Shown here: positions 6,915-31,749 of the stretch, piece by piece
How positions within the stretch are numbered: the stretch's first letter is position 1
Layout of the letters: the number at the start of each line of letters is the position of its first letter
Assembly (NCBI GenBank): GCA_964580335.1
Contig: CAZOKC010000001.1
Coordinates: 7,885 to 41,640, forward strand
Length of the DNA stretch: 33,756 bases
Origin: an uncultured Candidatus Peribacteria bacterium
Lineage (GTDB): Bacteria > Patescibacteriota > Gracilibacteria > CAZOKC01
Direction of reading: 5' to 3'
The notes under the pieces: generated by a model
What the model saw: only the letters and a program-made list of their open reading frames with translations
Database searches by the model: none
Told to the model about the DNA's origin: nothing
Made by a program: the position numbers and the translations under genes

Positions 6915-6927
6915 GTAGTTATGATAA

Positions 6928-7026
6928 AGAATAAGATACATCATTTCTGAACGATTTGTGCGATACTTGTCGTACATGTTAGACAAGGGTTTGAGCACAG
7001 AAGTGAAGAATGATGTATCTTATTTT
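6928..7026 (+). terminator. Long imperfect hairpin (18-bp outer stem) downstream of fusA; probable terminator or other structured element
   Basis: AATAAGATACATCATT (6930-6945) is the exact reverse complement of AATGATGTATCTTATT (7009-7024). The stem extends by a G-U and an A-U pair. Inner helices are TGTGC/GCACA and CTTGTC/GACAAG. A TTTT run follows. Confidence 0.45.
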
Positions 7027-7192
7027 AATAGTATAGCGTATGTCGAACGATAGCCAAAGACTACGAAGCATAATAGGAAATCATTGTTTTTATACAAAGT
7101 ATCAATAATTTCTTATGTCAATTAGAACAAATTTGGCTTTGTTCGTATACATATGGATATATAGTATATTTATCAGGTATTTAAAAATGTAA

Positions 7193-13389: not shown

Positions 13390-13466
13390 GCGGTCGTAGT
13401 TCAATTGGATAGAACGCAGCCCTGCGAAGGCTGAGGTCGGAGGTTCGACTCCTCCCGATCGCACCA
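13390..13466 (+). tRNA. tRNA-Arg (anticodon GCG), CCA encoded
   Basis: Cloverleaf folded by hand. Acceptor GCGGUCG/CGAUCGC (one G-U), D stem GUUC/GAAC with A20, anticodon stem CAGCC/GGCUG, loop CU-GCG-AA, variable AGGUC, T arm GGAGG-UUCGACU-CCUCC, discriminator A, 3' CCA. 77 nt. Confidence 0.9.
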
Positions 13467-13567: not shown

Positions 13568-14146
13568 ATGTCTTTCGAAATAGAAAATAAAGTTTATTCA
13601 CTCATAAAAGGATATCAAAGTGAACATCAAAGAACACCAACAGTGAGATGGCTTAAAGATCAACTTGGTTTCAAATCAACTCGTTCAGCTAAGCAATATA
13701 TAGATAGGCTCGCAGAAACTGGAAAGATTACAAAAGATAGTACAGGAAAAATATGTTTTCTTACCCCAAGGGGTTTACCAATACTTTCTTCTATAGCTGC
13801 TGGAGGTGCTACAGTTGAAGAACAAATAAATGATGCTCCAAAACTTGATCTTTCTTATATCTTTGAATCTGGAAATGAAGACTTTTTTGCCTTGAAAGTA
13901 AGAGGGGATTCTATGATAGATGCTGGTATTCATGAAGATGACTTTGTAATAGTGGATAGAAAAAAAGAACCGAGAGTAGGTGACATAGTTGTAGGAATTA
14001 TAGATGATGCATGGACTCTTAAAAGACTCGATAAGATCGAGGGCAAATATTATTTAAAACCTGAAAACTCAAAATATTCTGACCTTATACCAAGAGATAG
14101 TTTAAAGATCGGAGGAGTAGTTATAAATCTTATAAGGAAGTATTGA
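13568..14146 (+). CDS. lexA: LexA repressor (S24 peptidase)
   Basis: N-terminal winged-helix region, IAAGG cleavage site (Ala-Gly), GDSM Ser nucleophile, TLKRL Lys; 192 aa. Confidence 0.9.
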   Translation: MSFEIENKVYSLIKGYQSEHQRTPTVRWLKDQLGFKSTRSAKQYIDRLAETGKITKDSTGKICFLTPRGLPILSSIAAGGATVEEQINDAPKLDLSYIFESGNEDFFALKVRGDSMIDAGIHEDDFVIVDRKKEPRVGDIVVGIIDDAWTLKRLDKIEGKYYLKPENSKYSDLIPRDSLKIGGVVINLIRKY

Positions 14147-16366: not shown

Positions 16367-17044
16367 ATGGACAAGTTTAATCTGAATGTAAATTTAAGAG
16401 ATGAAAAAGGTACTTCCGCTTCTAATAATTTAAGAAGACAAGGATCTGTGCCTGGAGTGATTTATGGTAAAAAAATGTCACCTGTTACAGTATCTTTCAA
16501 AAATAATGAATTTGATGTTCTTTATAGAGATGCGGGAGAAAGTTCTATTATTGAACTGACAGATGGAAAAAGTAAATGGAACGTTGTTATAAAAGACGTA
16601 AATTATCATCCTGCAAAAGGAGATGTTATACATGTTGATTTTAAAGCAGTATCAATGAATGAAGAAATTACTGTTAATATACCTTTGGTATTTGAAGGTG
16701 TTGCTATGGGTGTAAAAGAACATGGAGGTACGTTTGTTTCTATGAAAGATGAAATTGAAGTAACCTGTCTTCCAAAATATCTTGTTCATGAAATAGTAGT
16801 GGATATAACACCTCTTACTGAAATAGGTAGTTCTTTACATATATCTGACATTAAATTACCAACAGGTATGATAACAGAACATGATCCAGAAGAAGTTATT
16901 GCTCAAATTGCTGCTCCTGTTTCTGAAGCTGATCTTGAGACTGCGGAAGCAGTTCTACCTGAAGGAGCGGAAGAACCTACTGAAGGTGGAGAAGGAGGAG
17001 ATGAATCTAAAGAGGGTAAAAATGAATCTGATAATAAAGAATAA
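16367..17044 (+). CDS. rplY: Ribosomal protein bL25 (Ctc form) with acidic C-terminal tail
   Basis: ATG 16367 gives MDKFNLNVNLRDEKGTSASNNLRRQGSVPGVIYGK.., followed by the Ctc-type second domain. The tail is EGAEEPTEGGEGGDESKEG. The track start at 16307 is an upstream extension. Confidence 0.85.
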   Translation: MDKFNLNVNLRDEKGTSASNNLRRQGSVPGVIYGKKMSPVTVSFKNNEFDVLYRDAGESSIIELTDGKSKWNVVIKDVNYHPAKGDVIHVDFKAVSMNEEITVNIPLVFEGVAMGVKEHGGTFVSMKDEIEVTCLPKYLVHEIVVDITPLTEIGSSLHISDIKLPTGMITEHDPEEVIAQIAAPVSEADLETAEAVLPEGAEEPTEGGEGGDESKEGKNESDNKE

Positions 17045-25364: not shown

Positions 25365-25591
25365 AAAAATTTAGTTTAACTAAATTCTAAACTTAAATAT
25401 CCATATTTCAAGAAATATGTGTTATAGGTCAATAAATTTTAAGTTTTATTTTCTCTGCCCATTCTGTCATAAACACTTCCGCCATTTCTTGTTATAGATT
25501 GGTCTAAACTGGGACTTCCATCATTTGAGCTGCTATACCCCCCCCTCCAGATGATCCACCTTTACCACCTCCAGTTGCTATAGTAGTAGAT

Positions 25592-27067
25592 TTAGATTTT
25601 TTTAACTGTCCATTTATGGCTTGAGGAATCCCATTCGATATTAACTTGTTTTTTATTCCAATTTACATTATTAGGATTTGTTCCAGTATACTCTGATTTA
25701 TTATCAACTTTTATAGTTATACTTTCTGGAGCACCATTAGTCATACATAAAATGTTTGCTACGGCACTCTGCAATGATGTTAATGATTCTTTAGCTTTCG
25801 AATTTTCATCTGGATCTGTATTTGTATAAGCTGGTAAATTTATAGTTGTCAGTTTGGTAAGCTTTTCAAGTCCAGAAAAATCTATTTTTGAAGTAATTGT
25901 TGAATCAAACTTCACATCAGGAAAAGTCACTTCCGTCACACCTGTAAACGCATCCAGATTTGGAATAGTTTTACTTTCAATTGTTAATTTTGTTACTTTT
26001 GAAACATCAATTCCGGTAGGTAAAGTCGTAAACCCTTCTTTCATTACAAATGTAGTACCATCAGTTAAAAATTCATAATTTGTGTTAGGTTTCTTTTCTT
26101 CCTCTTTAGTTATTTCAGGTGATTTTTGTTCCATCAAGAAATCAAAAAGGAATTTTGTTCTTGCTTCAGGAGTGTCGGCTTTACTTATATTGAAAGCAAG
26201 AGCTGCTTTTGCTTGAGAGAGAGTTTCTGTAGGAATCCCCGCAAAAATATCTACTTCATCAGGAGATGAGATTCTTAATCCTTTGCCTTCGGTATCTGTC
26301 ACTTGTTTTCCGCTAGAATCAACTAATGGCATCTTTGTAAATTTATTTTTTAGTGTTTGAGCTTGTGACGCGGTAAATAAAGCAAAACTTGTACTATCTA
26401 GTGTGTTTAGTGCAAGTGAATTGATATTTGGATTTGTCTCAAGTAGTGTTTTATCTTGAATTTCGGAAAGTATTCTTTCTGCAAATTTATCGCGAAGAGT
26501 ATATGTTTCCCAACCTTTCGTTCCTACCATATCGTCTAAATATTTGTCTAAAGCACCTATTTTGAGTCCTCTTAAGATATCTACGATGAATGCCATGACA
26601 AAACCTTCTTCGAATCCCATATTTTTGGCAAATTCTTTTATCCCACCAAGTGTATCTGTCTTTACATCGACGTGTTTTTGGATTTCCGCAACTAATTCTT
26701 GAAGGACTTTGAATAATCTTGAATATTCAGTTCTTTCTTCTTCACTTAAAGTAGATCCAGAGTCTTTTCCTGCTTCTCTTAACTTCGCGATAAAATCTCT
26801 TCCTATCTGATCTTTTAGACTATTTAAACTGGCTTGCGTTTCGGATGATACTTTCCCTATTTCTTTTTTGTAAAAATCATCAAGTGCTATTTCAAAAGTT
26901 TTAATGGACTCTTCGGCGACCTCCTCACTTTTTACTGTGTGTGCCTGCATCGTATCTATACTTTTGATAAGTGGATTAAAATCAGGTTTTGCCTGAAATC
27001 CAGAAAGCATATTTCCTACAAAAGGTATATCTGTAATATTTCGCTTTTCTGCTCCTGTATCTGCCAT
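25592..27067 (-). CDS. Hypothetical protein, C-terminal leucine-rich-repeat-like region; no signal peptide
   Basis: 491-aa ORF with no recognisable catalytic motif. The C-terminal third has LRR-like periodicity (..VSKVTKLTIESKTIPNLDAFTGVTEVTFPD..FSGLEKLTKLTTINLP..). Confidence 0.6.
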   Translation of the reverse strand: MADTGAEKRNITDIPFVGNMLSGFQAKPDFNPLIKSIDTMQAHTVKSEEVAEESIKTFEIALDDFYKKEIGKVSSETQASLNSLKDQIGRDFIAKLREAGKDSGSTLSEEERTEYSRLFKVLQELVAEIQKHVDVKTDTLGGIKEFAKNMGFEEGFVMAFIVDILRGLKIGALDKYLDDMVGTKGWETYTLRDKFAERILSEIQDKTLLETNPNINSLALNTLDSTSFALFTASQAQTLKNKFTKMPLVDSSGKQVTDTEGKGLRISSPDEVDIFAGIPTETLSQAKAALAFNISKADTPEARTKFLFDFLMEQKSPEITKEEEKKPNTNYEFLTDGTTFVMKEGFTTLPTGIDVSKVTKLTIESKTIPNLDAFTGVTEVTFPDVKFDSTITSKIDFSGLEKLTKLTTINLPAYTNTDPDENSKAKESLTSLQSAVANILCMTNGAPESITIKVDNKSEYTGTNPNNVNWNKKQVNIEWDSSSHKWTVKKI

Positions 27068-27816: not shown

Positions 27817-27856
27817 TTGACATTTTATTTTAGCAATCTAAAATAGTGAGTGCTAA
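27817..27856 (+). promoter_or_regulatory. dnaK promoter (TTGACA-N16-TAAAAT) overlapping a CIRCE/HrcA operator (27830-27856)
   Basis: TTAGCAATC-N9-GAGTGCTAA versus the consensus TTAGCACTC-N9-GAGTGCTAA, one mismatch. The left arm sits in the promoter spacer and the right arm just past the -10. Confidence 0.8.
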
Positions 27857-27882
27857 ATTATTCATTTCAGGTAATAATTTAT

Positions 27883-27990: not shown

Positions 27991-29922
27991 ATGCCAAAAA
28001 TAATCGGAATTGACCTTGGAACTACAAATTCATGTGTTGCCTTTATGGAAGGAGGTGAACCAAAAGTTATACCAAATGCAGAAGGGGATAGAACAACTCC
28101 TTCGGTAGTTGCTATAAAAGGTGATGATAGACTTGTCGGAGTTACTGCAAAAAGACAAGCTGTGACAAATCCTACAAATACTATTTTCTCTGCAAAAAGA
28201 TTTATCGGAAGAAAATTTGATGAAGTAAAAGAGGAAATAAAAGGTGTTCCTTATGAAGTGACAAAAGCTTCTGATGGAGGTTGTCTTATTACACTAAATG
28301 GAGAAAAGAAAAGACCTGAAGAAATAAGTGCTATGGTACTTGCAAAACTAAAAGCTGACGCGGAAAGTTACCTTGGAGAAACTATTACAGAAGCTGTGAT
28401 CACAGTTCCGGCTTATTTCAATGACAGTCAAAGACAAGCTACAAAAGACGCAGGAAGAATAGCAGGACTTGAAGTAAAAAGAATAATAAACGAACCTACT
28501 GCGGCGGCTCTTGCATATGGACTTGATAAGAAAAAAGACCAAAAAATAGCGGTTTACGATCTTGGAGGAGGAACTTTCGATGTTTCTATATTGGAAGTTG
28601 GTGAAGGTGAAGACGGCGAATTTGCAGTACAGGTACTTTCTACAAATGGAGATACTCATCTTGGAGGAGATGATTTTGATAAAAGAATACTGGATCATCT
28701 ACTTGCAGAATTCAAAAAAGATCAAGGGATTGACCTTTCAAATGATAAAATGGCTATTCAAAGACTTCGTGAAGAAGCTGAGAAAGCTAAAAAAGAACTT
28801 TCAAGTAAGACTGAAGTTGAGATAAATATTCCATTTATCACAGCAGATGCTTCTGGTCCAAAACATCTTAATACAAAACTTACTAGAGCAAAATTTGAAC
28901 AACTTATCGAAGATCTTGTAGAAAGAAGTTTGGAACCTTGTAAAAAAGCTATAGAAGACTCTGGACTTTCTACTTCAGAAATAGATGAGGTAGTTTTGGT
29001 GGGTGGTTCTACAAGAGTTCCTTTTGTAGTAGCTAAAGTAAAAGAACTTTTTGGAAAAGAACCTCATAAAGGTGTAAATCCTGATGAAGTTGTAGCTATC
29101 GGTGCTGGAGTACAGGGAGGTGTACTTGCAGGAGACGTAAAAGATGTATTACTTCTTGATGTTACTCCACTTTCTCTTGGTATAGAAACACTTGGAGGAG
29201 TTTCTACAAAACTTATCGAAAGAAATACAACTATCCCAACTTCTACATCTCAGATAGTCTCGACAGCCCAAGAGAATCAACCTGGTGTGGAAATCCATAT
29301 CACTCAAGGTGAAAGAGAATTTGCAAAAGATAATAAGTCTCTTGGTAAATTCATGCTTGATGGTATAGCTCCAGCACCACGTGGAGTACCTCAGATCGAA
29401 GTAACTTTTGATATAGATGCCAATGGTATCTTGCATGTGAAAGCCGTAGATAAAGGTACAGGAAAAGAACAAAAGATAACAATACAAGGATCAAGTGGTA
29501 TTTCTGAAGAAGAAATCAAGAAAATGCAGGAAGATGCAGTCAAATTTGCTGATGAAGATAAGAAAAAGAAAGAACTTATCGAAGCCCGAAACCTCGCTGA
29601 TAGTCTTATTTATCAAGCTGAAAAAACTGCAAAAGAAGCAGGAGAAAAAGTTAGTCTCGAACTTAAAGAATCTGTAAAAGCAAAAGCAGCTGAAGTCAGA
29701 ATACTGAAAGATAAAGAAGATGTGACAAAAGAAGAATTAGACACTGCTTGTACCGACCTTCAAAACGAACTTATGAAACTTGGTGAAGAAATGTATAAAC
29801 AAGGACAAACTCCATCTGAGGCTGCCGGAGAAAAAGCAGCACAAGAACATGGAGAAGAAGAACTAAAAGGAGGTGAGGATGTGGTAGAAGGTGAAGTCGT
29901 GGATGAGGATAAGAAAGATTAA
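27991..29922 (+). CDS. dnaK: Chaperone DnaK (Hsp70)
   Basis: [36 protein letters not shown]; 643 aa full length. Confidence 0.97.
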
Positions 29923-29924
29923 TA

Positions 29925-30172
29925 AGAAACGCGCCCTCGAGAAAGATCTTGAGGGCGCCAAGTCAGGATTTTTCCTTTGGTCTAAAACGCTCTTTCATCT
30001 CATGGCATTGAAGAGACTTATTTTTTGGACCTAAAGGAAAATCCTTTTTGATTGACATCAGGGGAGTCTTACACGGTGGATTTTAATCCACTTGCTTTTT
30101 CATAGGTAAGAGTCAAAGTGGGATTGCTCTTTCCATACTTAGTCTCGTGTTCTGCACGCCAGATGTTTTCGG
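29925..30172 (-). ncRNA. Candidate structured non-coding RNA of unknown family (promoter-to-terminator unit)
   Basis: The start is inferred about 7 nt past a consensus promoter (30178-30205). The 5' multi-helix domain is closed by CATCAGG/CCAGATG (30056-62/30159-65). It contains hairpins at 30076-81/30086-91 and 30146-49/30155-58 and the helix 30064-72/30106-14. A long hairpin follows at 29965-30045, then the terminator at 29931-58. Confidence 0.4.
29931..29958. terminator. Strong 12-bp hairpin GCGCCCTCGAGA-AAGA-TCTTGAGGGCGC
   Basis: Perfect stem apart from one G-U pair. On the minus strand it is followed by GUUUCUUAUUAAUCUUUCUU (U-rich); on the plus strand by CAAGUCAGG (not U-rich). Confidence 0.6.
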
Positions 30173-30177
30173 TTGGT

Positions 30178-30205
30178 ATTATATGTATATAACCGATTTT
30201 GTCAA
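30178..30205 (-). promoter_or_regulatory. Consensus sigma70-type promoter TTGACA-N16-TATAAT (minus strand)
   Basis: The reverse complement of 30178-30205 reads TTGACAAAATCGGTTATATACATATAAT. It lies immediately downstream of the stop of the 511-aa gene and points into the dnaK-distal intergenic region. Confidence 0.5.
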
Positions 30206-30213
30206 TACTTTCT

Positions 30214-31749
30214 TTACTTAATTTTTAAGGTCTTTGTTACTTCTTCAAATTCATCTTTGAAATCCACTTTAGATGTTTTTGGTATAGCTTGAATAATTGA
30301 AACTATTTTGAAGTTGTTTGCGACTATTCTATGCACTATATCGAAATTCAAATTTGAATTCAGTTTATTGGTTAAAGTATATTGAAGTTCATACATCTTT
30401 GTTTTTCCACTATAATAAGCGCCTTCCTTAGATATTTTAACATTGTTATAAAGACCTAAAGCTATTTTCAGGTCTTCAAGGTATGACGCTTGATCAAATG
30501 TGGTGTTTATATCTTTTTCTACTGTGACAAGTAGCGGATATGTTCTAAGATTTTCTTTGTACCAAGGTTTTACATAAAGTACTTCATACTGCCTTGTCAA
30601 AGAATTTAAATGATATAAATATGGATTATTTTTAAGTAGATTATCTACGGATGATACGTTTAATACTTCAAAATTTTCTGGATGTTCAAAAGAAATTCCT
30701 ATTTTGGAATCTTCAAATGTTTTATTTATGTAAGTCAGAGAGTCTTTGGTATCTATTTTTGCAGTTTTTACAAATTCGTATATTTCGTTATAATATTTTG
30801 AATTGAAATTCAGTCCATGATAAGTGAAAACTAAAACTCTTGAATCATTTATAATGTAGATTCCGTGAGTAAAAGGAGTTTTGTTATTGGATATTCTTCT
30901 GTCTATAAATTCTAAAGCTTTGATACTTCCAATATTTACTATCTTTGAAAGAGCTTTGTATCTTTCATCTTTGATAGCTTTTTCTCGAACATGAGAAAGT
31001 GTTGTAACTTGGTCATCTTCATCGAATTCTTGCAGATAAACTGTAATATAATCTTTATCTAAAGAATCTACGTTATCTTTTGGGATAAATGCACTTATAA
31101 ATTTACCATTACCATAAAATTGTTTGGGCAATTTACTTAAACTGATTTTTTCAAAGTTTGATGTGTATTTGAAATTCACTCCGAAAAATTGATTTTCAAA
31201 ATCCATCATTATCTTTTTGATACTTGTATCTACTTCAGGCAATTTTACTTCTTCATCAGTTAGTTTACTATCCTGATTTACCTGACTTGCAAAAAAACCA
31301 TTTAAAGCATCAAGAAGTCTTGGTGCTCCTTGCCTTGTATAAATCGTACCAAAATTGAATTTTTCTAAATATGATTTTCTTGAGACGGTTTGTGCTCTCT
31401 TGCCCCATGTATAACCTGAAACCTTGAATCTTTCTTGTAAACATAATGCTTCAAAATCTTTCAAAGGTTCATCTCTTTTTATACATGAAATATCACCAGA
31501 TTTTGCTGCAAGTGCTATAAGAAAATAATCATAACTAAGTGGTTTATTTTGAAATCTATTTTCTATAAAAAAACGGTTTGTATTAAGTCTACCTCCATGT
31601 AGTTTTTCGGACCAAAGTTTGATAGTTAAATCTCTTGTTTCATTTTCCGTTTTAGTATCGGCAGAAACAATATTGAAACTAGATATAAATAAAAACAAGA
31701 ATGCTACGAAAATTATTCTAAATTTCATATGTTGGAAGATTAGGGACAA
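30214..31749 (-). CDS. Secreted hypothetical protein
   Basis: 511-aa ORF. The likely start is ATG 31728 (MKFRIIFVAFLFLFISSFNIVSA, a signal peptide). No recognisable motif. Confidence 0.65.
   Translation of the reverse strand: MSLIFQHMKFRIIFVAFLFLFISSFNIVSADTKTENETRDLTIKLWSEKLHGGRLNTNRFFIENRFQNKPLSYDYFLIALAAKSGDISCIKRDEPLKDFEALCLQERFKVSGYTWGKRAQTVSRKSYLEKFNFGTIYTRQGAPRLLDALNGFFASQVNQDSKLTDEEVKLPEVDTSIKKIMMDFENQFFGVNFKYTSNFEKISLSKLPKQFYGNGKFISAFIPKDNVDSLDKDYITVYLQEFDEDDQVTTLSHVREKAIKDERYKALSKIVNIGSIKALEFIDRRISNNKTPFTHGIYIINDSRVLVFTYHGLNFNSKYYNEIYEFVKTAKIDTKDSLTYINKTFEDSKIGISFEHPENFEVLNVSSVDNLLKNNPYLYHLNSLTRQYEVLYVKPWYKENLRTYPLLVTVEKDINTTFDQASYLEDLKIALGLYNNVKISKEGAYYSGKTKMYELQYTLTNKLNSNLNFDIVHRIVANNFKIVSIIQAIPKTSKVDFKDEFEEVTKTLKIK

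Follow-up and report, generated by a model that had tools for sequence, protein, structure and literature searches.

We identified, between dnaK and a convergent orphan gene of 511 aa, a stretch of DNA whose minus strand looks like a self-contained unit of non-coding transcription: it has its own promoter, is enriched in G+C, contains no credible open reading frame (ORF) and ends in a terminator of that strand. It lies in a 33,756-nt part of contig CAZOKC010000001.1 (here referred to as "the window"), which comes from an uncultured bacterium of the Candidate Phyla Radiation (CPR) and has a G+C content of 30.6%. We read the stretch as a stand-alone gene for a small non-coding RNA (sRNA) of about 245–250 nt in an isolated CPR lineage and, on the evidence of the sequence, put the probability of this reading at about 0.5; such an sRNA would probably be lineage-specific. 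That a discrete transcript of this kind exists seems reasonably likely. A function of its own for the RNA is a tentative proposal, to which we give slightly less than even odds, and antisense control of dnaK as that function is rather unlikely. A preceding examination of the letters of the window (here called the sequence-only reading) had suggested an undescribed sRNA or another regulatory RNA at this place; the transcription-unit anatomy and the absence of an Rfam family or a transfer-messenger RNA (tmRNA) support that suggestion, but its detailed drawing of a multi-helix 5' domain does not hold.

The promoter is of the sigma-70 type, TTGACA-N16-TATAAT, and lies on the minus strand at 30205–30178, the very place where an orphan promoter had been claimed. 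It matches the consensus at 12 of 12 positions and is unique in this respect in the window. As also claimed, it adjoins the stop of the 511-aa gene, its -35 hexamer beginning 8 nt past the TAA (30216–30214), and an A-rich stretch lies upstream of it. By arithmetic from the base composition of the window, about 0.12 perfect matches are expected by chance per window, about 0.008 in all intergenic DNA and about 0.001 in this gap. Matches at 11 of 12 positions include the promoter of dnaK itself, TTGACA-N16-TAAAAT (27817–27844), which has an equal spacer of 16 nt and is followed by a CIRCE-like (controlling inverted repeat of chaperone expression) repeat, the sequence scan placing promoter and CIRCE together at 27817–27860 on the plus strand; therefore consensus-like sigma-70 promoters seem to be in real use in this host. 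From the promoter spacing alone, the transcript would start at about 30170–30174. As a separate observation, an inverted repeat UCGGUU-N16-AACCGA (30164–30195) runs from the promoter spacer across the -10 element into the start region, and UUUUGUC follows it on the plus strand. This repeat could either block access to the promoter or act as one more weak terminator of the plus strand.

At the other end of the unit lies a predicted intrinsic terminator of the minus strand (29921–29959). Its stem pairs 29958–29951 with 29938–29931 and gains 3 bp past an A-C mismatch, the loop is UCUU, and the U-rich tail GUUUCUUAUU follows and reaches the dnaK stop codon (29920–29922, plus strand). The GC hairpin itself (29931–29958) has a pair probability of 1.0 and, together with its U-rich tract, is as the sequence-only reading described it. 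The tail of this hairpin, the strongest in the gap, exists on the minus strand only: the 3' flank on the plus strand is CAAGUCAGG, and there the hairpin has 12 bp, including one G-U pair, without an adjacent U tract. Between promoter and terminator, all minus-strand ORFs are at most 31 aa in length, in line with the claim that no ORF follows the promoter. The gap between dnaK and the 511-aa ORF (29923–30213) is 291 nt long, which is unusual because the remaining convergent pairs in the window overlap or are 51 nt apart. With 40% GC it is the richest of the 13 intergenic regions, the other 12 having 14–34%, and the reported G+C enrichment over the 30.6% of the window is thus real. The predicted 5' domain of the RNA (30050–30172) reaches 43.9% GC, which places it in the top 0.84% among all segments of 123 nt, and the AT skew of 30000–30213 (A-rich) agrees with that of minus-strand genes. 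Outside the tRNA gene and dnaK, G+C also rises locally to 44% or more over 123 nt at 25446–25633 and 16855–17036, the former in the 227-nt gap after an orphan gene of 491 aa. A pseudogene remnant in the dnaK gap, for example of dnaJ, was considered and rejected, for stops occur throughout all six frames.

The whole stretch of 251 nt, folded as the minus strand, has an energy of -73.9 kcal/mol (z = -4.5), a score due mainly to the long hairpin and the terminator, and the 120-nt segment 29921–30040 is the most stable in the whole window. Both the minimum free energy structure and the ensemble show a self-closed 5' domain, a separate hairpin of 81 nt and a separate terminator hairpin, with no end-to-end pairing. 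Accordingly, the multi-helix fold drawn before survives in part: the terminator, the long hairpin and a GUGGAU/AUCCAC hairpin are robust and the closing helix is plausible, but a 9-bp helix and a CGUG hairpin are disfavoured and do not exceed chance expectation. The long hairpin (29965–30045), near-perfect and present on both strands, has a pair probability of about 0.7, with z = -4.1 on the minus and -3.5 on the plus strand. Predicted minus-strand helices with pair probabilities of 0.35–0.96 make up the 5' domain of about 120 nt. Best supported among them is GUGGAU/AUCCAC (30091–86 with 30081–76, p = 0.96), followed by ACACG/CGUGU (30150–46 with 30075–71, p = 0.76); a local hairpin GG.AAGAGCAA/UUG.CUCUU.CC is also predicted. 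The closing helix, formerly drawn at 30056–62/30159–65, is present as ACAUC-U-GG/CC-U-GAUGU (30166–30159 with 30062–30055), but it contains a U-U mismatch and its p is only 0.35–0.45. The CGUG-loop-CACG hairpin falls to p = 0.06, the CACG favouring CGUGU at 30075–30071. The 9-bp helix 30064–72/30106–14 has p = 0.00, and a helix of equal quality (one mismatch) occurs in 20% of dinucleotide shuffles. The second copy of AATCC(C)AC that had been noticed is present in the sequence (AAUCCCAC). A candidate alternative pairing in the 5' domain, AAUCC(C)ACUU:AAGUGGAUU, could combine with the 9-bp helix into an H-type pseudoknot. The helices of the 5' domain are all Watson-Crick and fit both strands; the domain is therefore assigned to the minus strand from the promoter, from the tail of the terminator and from the A-rich skew.

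The long hairpin has a second role on the plus strand, where a T5 tract (30045–30049) follows it directly; no U-rich run follows that hairpin on the minus strand. We regard hairpin and tract, as read from the sequence, as probably the intrinsic terminator of dnaK itself. This had been raised as a possibility, with the tract at 30046–30050; the role is the best reading, fusA being alike, but the tract lies one position lower. Because of this assignment, the middle of the "multi-helix RNA" would be merely the complement of the dnaK 3' end, and the candidate RNA probably has no separate domain in its 3' half. On the 3' side of fusA (elongation factor G), a near-perfect hairpin of 96 nt (6929–7024) stands directly after the gene and is followed by UUUUAAU. 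Its sense strand folds at -40.7 kcal/mol versus -29.9 for the antisense, and in a scan for stable 120-nt segments, 6921–7040 ranks first after GC correction. Since dnaK and fusA both have one, a long AU-rich hairpin plus U tract looks like this host's terminator for highly expressed genes. The 278-nt gap after fusA (6915–7192) as a whole has z = -6.8, and its remaining 150 nt also fold well. Within the dnaK gap, a short hairpin GGTGGATTTTAATCCACT followed by TGCTTTTTCA (30075–30102, stem region 30075–30092) also looks like a plus-strand terminator, perhaps a back-up for dnaK; it is not significant alone, because one such site was found and 0.9 were expected in shuffles. On the minus strand this hairpin is the helix with the best support in the 5' domain. 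In the two nearest relatives (DnaK 70% identical; loci L081, 7927–8003, and L082, 7909–7962), dnaK is ended by a terminator composed of A-tract, GC hairpin and U-tract. The hairpin just after dnaK in the present window has lost, or never had, the U tract on its plus side. An origin of the long hairpin from a repeat or a miniature inverted-repeat transposable element was rejected, no second copy being found within the window.

The proposed mechanism is as follows. RNA polymerase with the housekeeping sigma factor would start from the promoter at 30205–30178, near 30170–30174, and would first copy the G+C-enriched 5' domain of about 120 nt. Transcription of the minus strand would then pass through the complement of dnaK's long-hairpin terminator and end at the GC hairpin with its U-rich tail (29959–29921), at the dnaK stop codon. 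The GC hairpin would also terminate transcripts of uvrA and the orphan gene, which lie upstream, and because of this shared terminator the unit resembles an sRNA located in a 3' untranslated region (3' UTR) and having its own promoter. The dnaK mRNA probably continues to the long hairpin and T5 (29965–30049), because no U tract adjoins the GC hairpin on the plus strand. The convergent terminators would thereby be interleaved, each transcript running through the complement of the opposite terminator ahead of its own, and dnaK mRNA and candidate RNA would share about 125 nt of perfect complementarity. Given this complementarity, an antisense interaction with the dnaK message is the most economical mechanism: a duplex with the dnaK 3' UTR would alter processing or stability of the heat-shock message, and trans action by the 5' domain is conceivable as well. 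Promoter, terminator, absence of ORFs longer than 31 aa, G+C enrichment and overlap geometry were established directly, whereas transcription, the ends of both RNAs and any regulatory effect are inferred.

An elaboration of this mechanism appears quite improbable to us. It holds that a lineage-specific regulatory RNA combines a 3' half acting as constitutive antisense to the dnaK 3' UTR with a 5' domain that switches between two exclusive folds, driven perhaps by temperature or a ligand. The first fold would contain the hairpin GUGGAUU/AAUCCAC and the local hairpin, and the second would pair AAUCC(C)ACUU with AAGUGGAUU and GACUCUUAC with GUAAGACUC in an H-type pseudoknot. If true, a switching antisense RNA would add an RNA layer to the HrcA/CIRCE heat-shock control in an organism of minimal regulation.

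Three known systems can be compared with the candidate. DapZ and MicL are enterobacterial 3'-UTR sRNAs having their own promoter. Like them, the candidate has its promoter at the end of the upstream gene, a predicted Rho-independent terminator common to sRNA and upstream mRNA, no credible ORF and a size in the 100–300 nt range; it differs in having no Hfq-type seed or known target, in belonging to a CPR host without Shine-Dalgarno usage, and in the overlap of its 3' half with the 3' UTR of the convergent gene. A second comparison is with Staphylococcus aureus and other Gram-positives, in which convergent 3' UTRs overlap genome-wide and, like the cis-antisense RNAs described there, are processed by RNase III. 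The likeness here lies in convergent units with interleaved terminators, each RNA being complementary to the other's 3' end (over about 125 nt in our case), but the present overlap is a prediction from the sequence. The third system, 6S RNA (ssrS, RF00013), is likewise ORF-free, is driven by a strong housekeeping promoter and measures about 200–250 nt, whereas the candidate has no Rfam match and forms two or three separate domains instead of one rod.

Several findings weigh against the existence of a stand-alone sRNA gene. The 5' 123 nt alone reach just z = -2.1, 8 of 200 shuffles folding equally well, and two of the three robust hairpins, having U tracts on the plus strand, are explicable as terminators of dnaK. 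The plus strand of the gap folds at -88.4 kcal/mol versus -73.9 for the minus strand, and at 30.6% GC about 0.12 perfect promoters are expected per window by chance. The tRNA gene has 60% GC and the 5' domain 43.9%; with a value so far below that of the tRNA gene, the 5' domain lacks the make-up of a stable housekeeping RNA. The stretch is present only in two hot-spring metagenome DNA runs (X1 and X2), both of low depth, and no RNA-seq run containing it was found. No homologue was obtained with nhmmer among 83 loci, including the dnaK regions of the nearest relatives, nor in any other collection searched, and hence there is no covariation signal.

The other searches for relatives gave the same picture. 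Against the same 83 loci, blastn returned only short matches at chance level (E >= 0.44), and against phages it returned nothing. A covariance model built from the single sequence of the 5' domain matched only itself in the window and 34 loci. Exact searches gave no match for a 28-mer in genome contigs and none for an 18-mer in viral contigs; a 19-mer gave 11 matches in metagenomes, all of them by chance within coding DNA of 54–67% GC. In all three relatives examined, the gene order downstream of dnaK differs; the regions past dnaK in the best relatives are unrelated and contain GC hairpin terminators of the ordinary kind. Prediction of targets by unrestricted duplex folding produced meaningless long duplexes and no usable target. 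If real, the unit would be another orphan sRNA in the poorly charted RNA repertoire of the CPR, with interleaved convergent terminators that would force sRNA and dnaK message to pair. The finding opens no new question alone, because neither relatives nor RNA runs were found and the 5' fold is weak; its main value is that of a candidate to revisit when this hot-spring lineage has been covered by metatranscriptomes or by genomes of its relatives.

The strongest competing explanation, still improbable in our view though to be taken seriously, is that the gap contains nothing except convergent terminators, namely the long hairpin with T5 and the back-up hairpin for dnaK and the GC hairpin for uvrA and the orphan gene, and that the promoter is a chance or weak spurious match. 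Each robust hairpin is indeed accompanied by a U tract on one of the two strands and can act for a neighbouring gene, and fusA possesses an equal long-hairpin terminator. Promoter-like sites in the window overall are no commoner than in shuffles, about 0.12 perfect ones per window being expected by chance, the fold of the 5' domain is weak, and conservation is not demonstrable. However, a 12/12 match inside this 291-nt gap and aimed at a terminator has a prior of only about 0.001. Terminators would also leave unexplained why the 120 nt from the promoter to the dnaK terminator have 44% GC, versus 14–34% elsewhere in intergenic DNA, and why the orphan gene's terminator stands 290 nt beyond its stop in a tightly packed genome.

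A poorer candidate is a functional RNA on the plus strand, that is, a long structured 3' UTR of dnaK (a stabiliser, tandem terminators or a 3'-UTR-derived RNA), with the minus-strand promoter being secondary; we consider it distinctly unlikely. The plus strand folds better than the minus strand (-88.4 vs -73.9 kcal/mol, z of -5.3 to -5.7 vs -4.5), but it is rich in G and U, so that its shuffles fold better too, and the z score of the long hairpin favours the minus strand. In the long and GC hairpins, G-U pairs of the plus strand are A-C mismatches on the minus strand, and the sense strand of the fusA hairpin is distinguished in this way too; the Watson-Crick helices of the 5' domain, however, do not separate the strands. 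The nearest relatives have a GC hairpin terminator at the same place after dnaK, yet no plus-strand U tract follows the GC hairpin here, and this explanation gives no account of the perfect promoter and the U tail on the minus strand.

Very unlikely is a highly diverged housekeeping RNA, such as 6S RNA, the signal recognition particle (SRP)/4.5S RNA, RNase P RNA or tmRNA, missed by standard models. A consensus promoter and an ORF-free RNA in a tiny genome are the expected look of such a gene, and CPR RNAs are frequently divergent. Against this, Rfam in gathering mode on the whole window gave no match for the unit, in agreement with the earlier statement that the conserved cores of SRP RNA, RNase P RNA, tmRNA and a hammerhead could not be recognised. 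In permissive mode (411 nt at E <= 10, and 131 nt) it gave hairpin noise of the microRNA and small nucleolar RNA kind and a likeness to PyrG_leader, a weak match covering just the minus-strand terminator and its tail. The sequence-only reading had also proposed a 6S-like RNA, which is not supported: the 6S covariance models (RF00013 and variants) gave no match at gathering score or at E <= 10 on the 411 nt, nor on the 131 nt, the ends are unpaired, and there is no rod with a central bubble. For SRP RNA (RF00169, RF01854) there was no Rfam match and no GNRA-capped helix-8 motif, the apical loop of the long hairpin being AU-rich, 11–15 nt in length and without GGAA or AGCAGC. RNase P RNA (RF00010, RF00011) had no Rfam match either. 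Its core order GGAAAGUCC ... ACAGAA is not present, the loosely similar CAGAAC and GGAAAGAG being reversed in order within 30 nt, and the unit of about 250 nt is shorter than RNase P RNA, which has at least 270 nt. ARAGORN found just a tRNA-Arg (13390–13466) and no tmRNA, and in the literature on 6S RNA or non-coding RNA families of the CPR nothing relevant was found.

Equally remote is the idea that the unit encodes a small protein, with the 5' domain as a translational control element. The longest minus-strand ORF of the unit (29962–30058, 31 aa, MSIKKDFPLGPKNKSLQCHEMKERFRPKEKS) has its AUG, at 30058, sequestered within the 3' strand of the predicted closing helix, and its missing Shine-Dalgarno sequence is no counter-argument, since the genes of the window lack such sequences, but it ends with TGA, a stop used by just 1 of 23 genes, its start context is atypically GC-rich versus A/T-rich in real genes, its frame crosses the long hairpin of about 30 bp, and its peptide is neither hydrophobic nor recognisable in any other way; it is probably no gene.

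With respect to the flanking genes, dnaK (27991–29922, plus strand) is the convergent neighbour of the candidate unit and matches HSP70 with E = 6e-258. Its closest relative in 5.8 billion protein clusters is 70% identical at most, the best relatives have 66–70% identity, and the top matches are labelled Gracilibacteria or Peregrinibacteria. The lineage thus appears isolated and related to these two groups. Logan contigs from both DNA runs are identical to the window. On the other side, the orphan ORF (30214–31749, minus strand) has 511 aa from a TTG start or 504 aa from the ATG at 31728. An N-terminal signal peptide or transmembrane segment is predicted for it, and there was no Pfam domain match. 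Homologues of the protein were found neither in 5.8e9 clusters, nor in 1.84e9 representatives, nor in the genome-contig collection, and it appears to be a true orphan between uvrA and the candidate RNA. Its gene has a GC content of 27–29%. Upstream of it lies uvrA on the same minus strand, and because no terminator separates the orphan gene from the promoter, the candidate-RNA region is also the 3' UTR of that gene.

As for gene structure in the window generally, Shine-Dalgarno sequences are nearly absent across 23 gene starts, and start codons lie in A/T-rich contexts. TGA is nearly unused, with no in-frame TGA in 24 long ORFs and a terminal TGA in 1 of 23 genes. It may be avoided or unassigned, because by DnaK similarity the lineage is near the TGA-recoding Gracilibacteria. 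An alternative code with TGA read as glycine was rejected: the genes contain no in-frame TGA, and the reading with code 11 stands. The sole gene ending with TGA (13568–14146) has another stop one codon further on.

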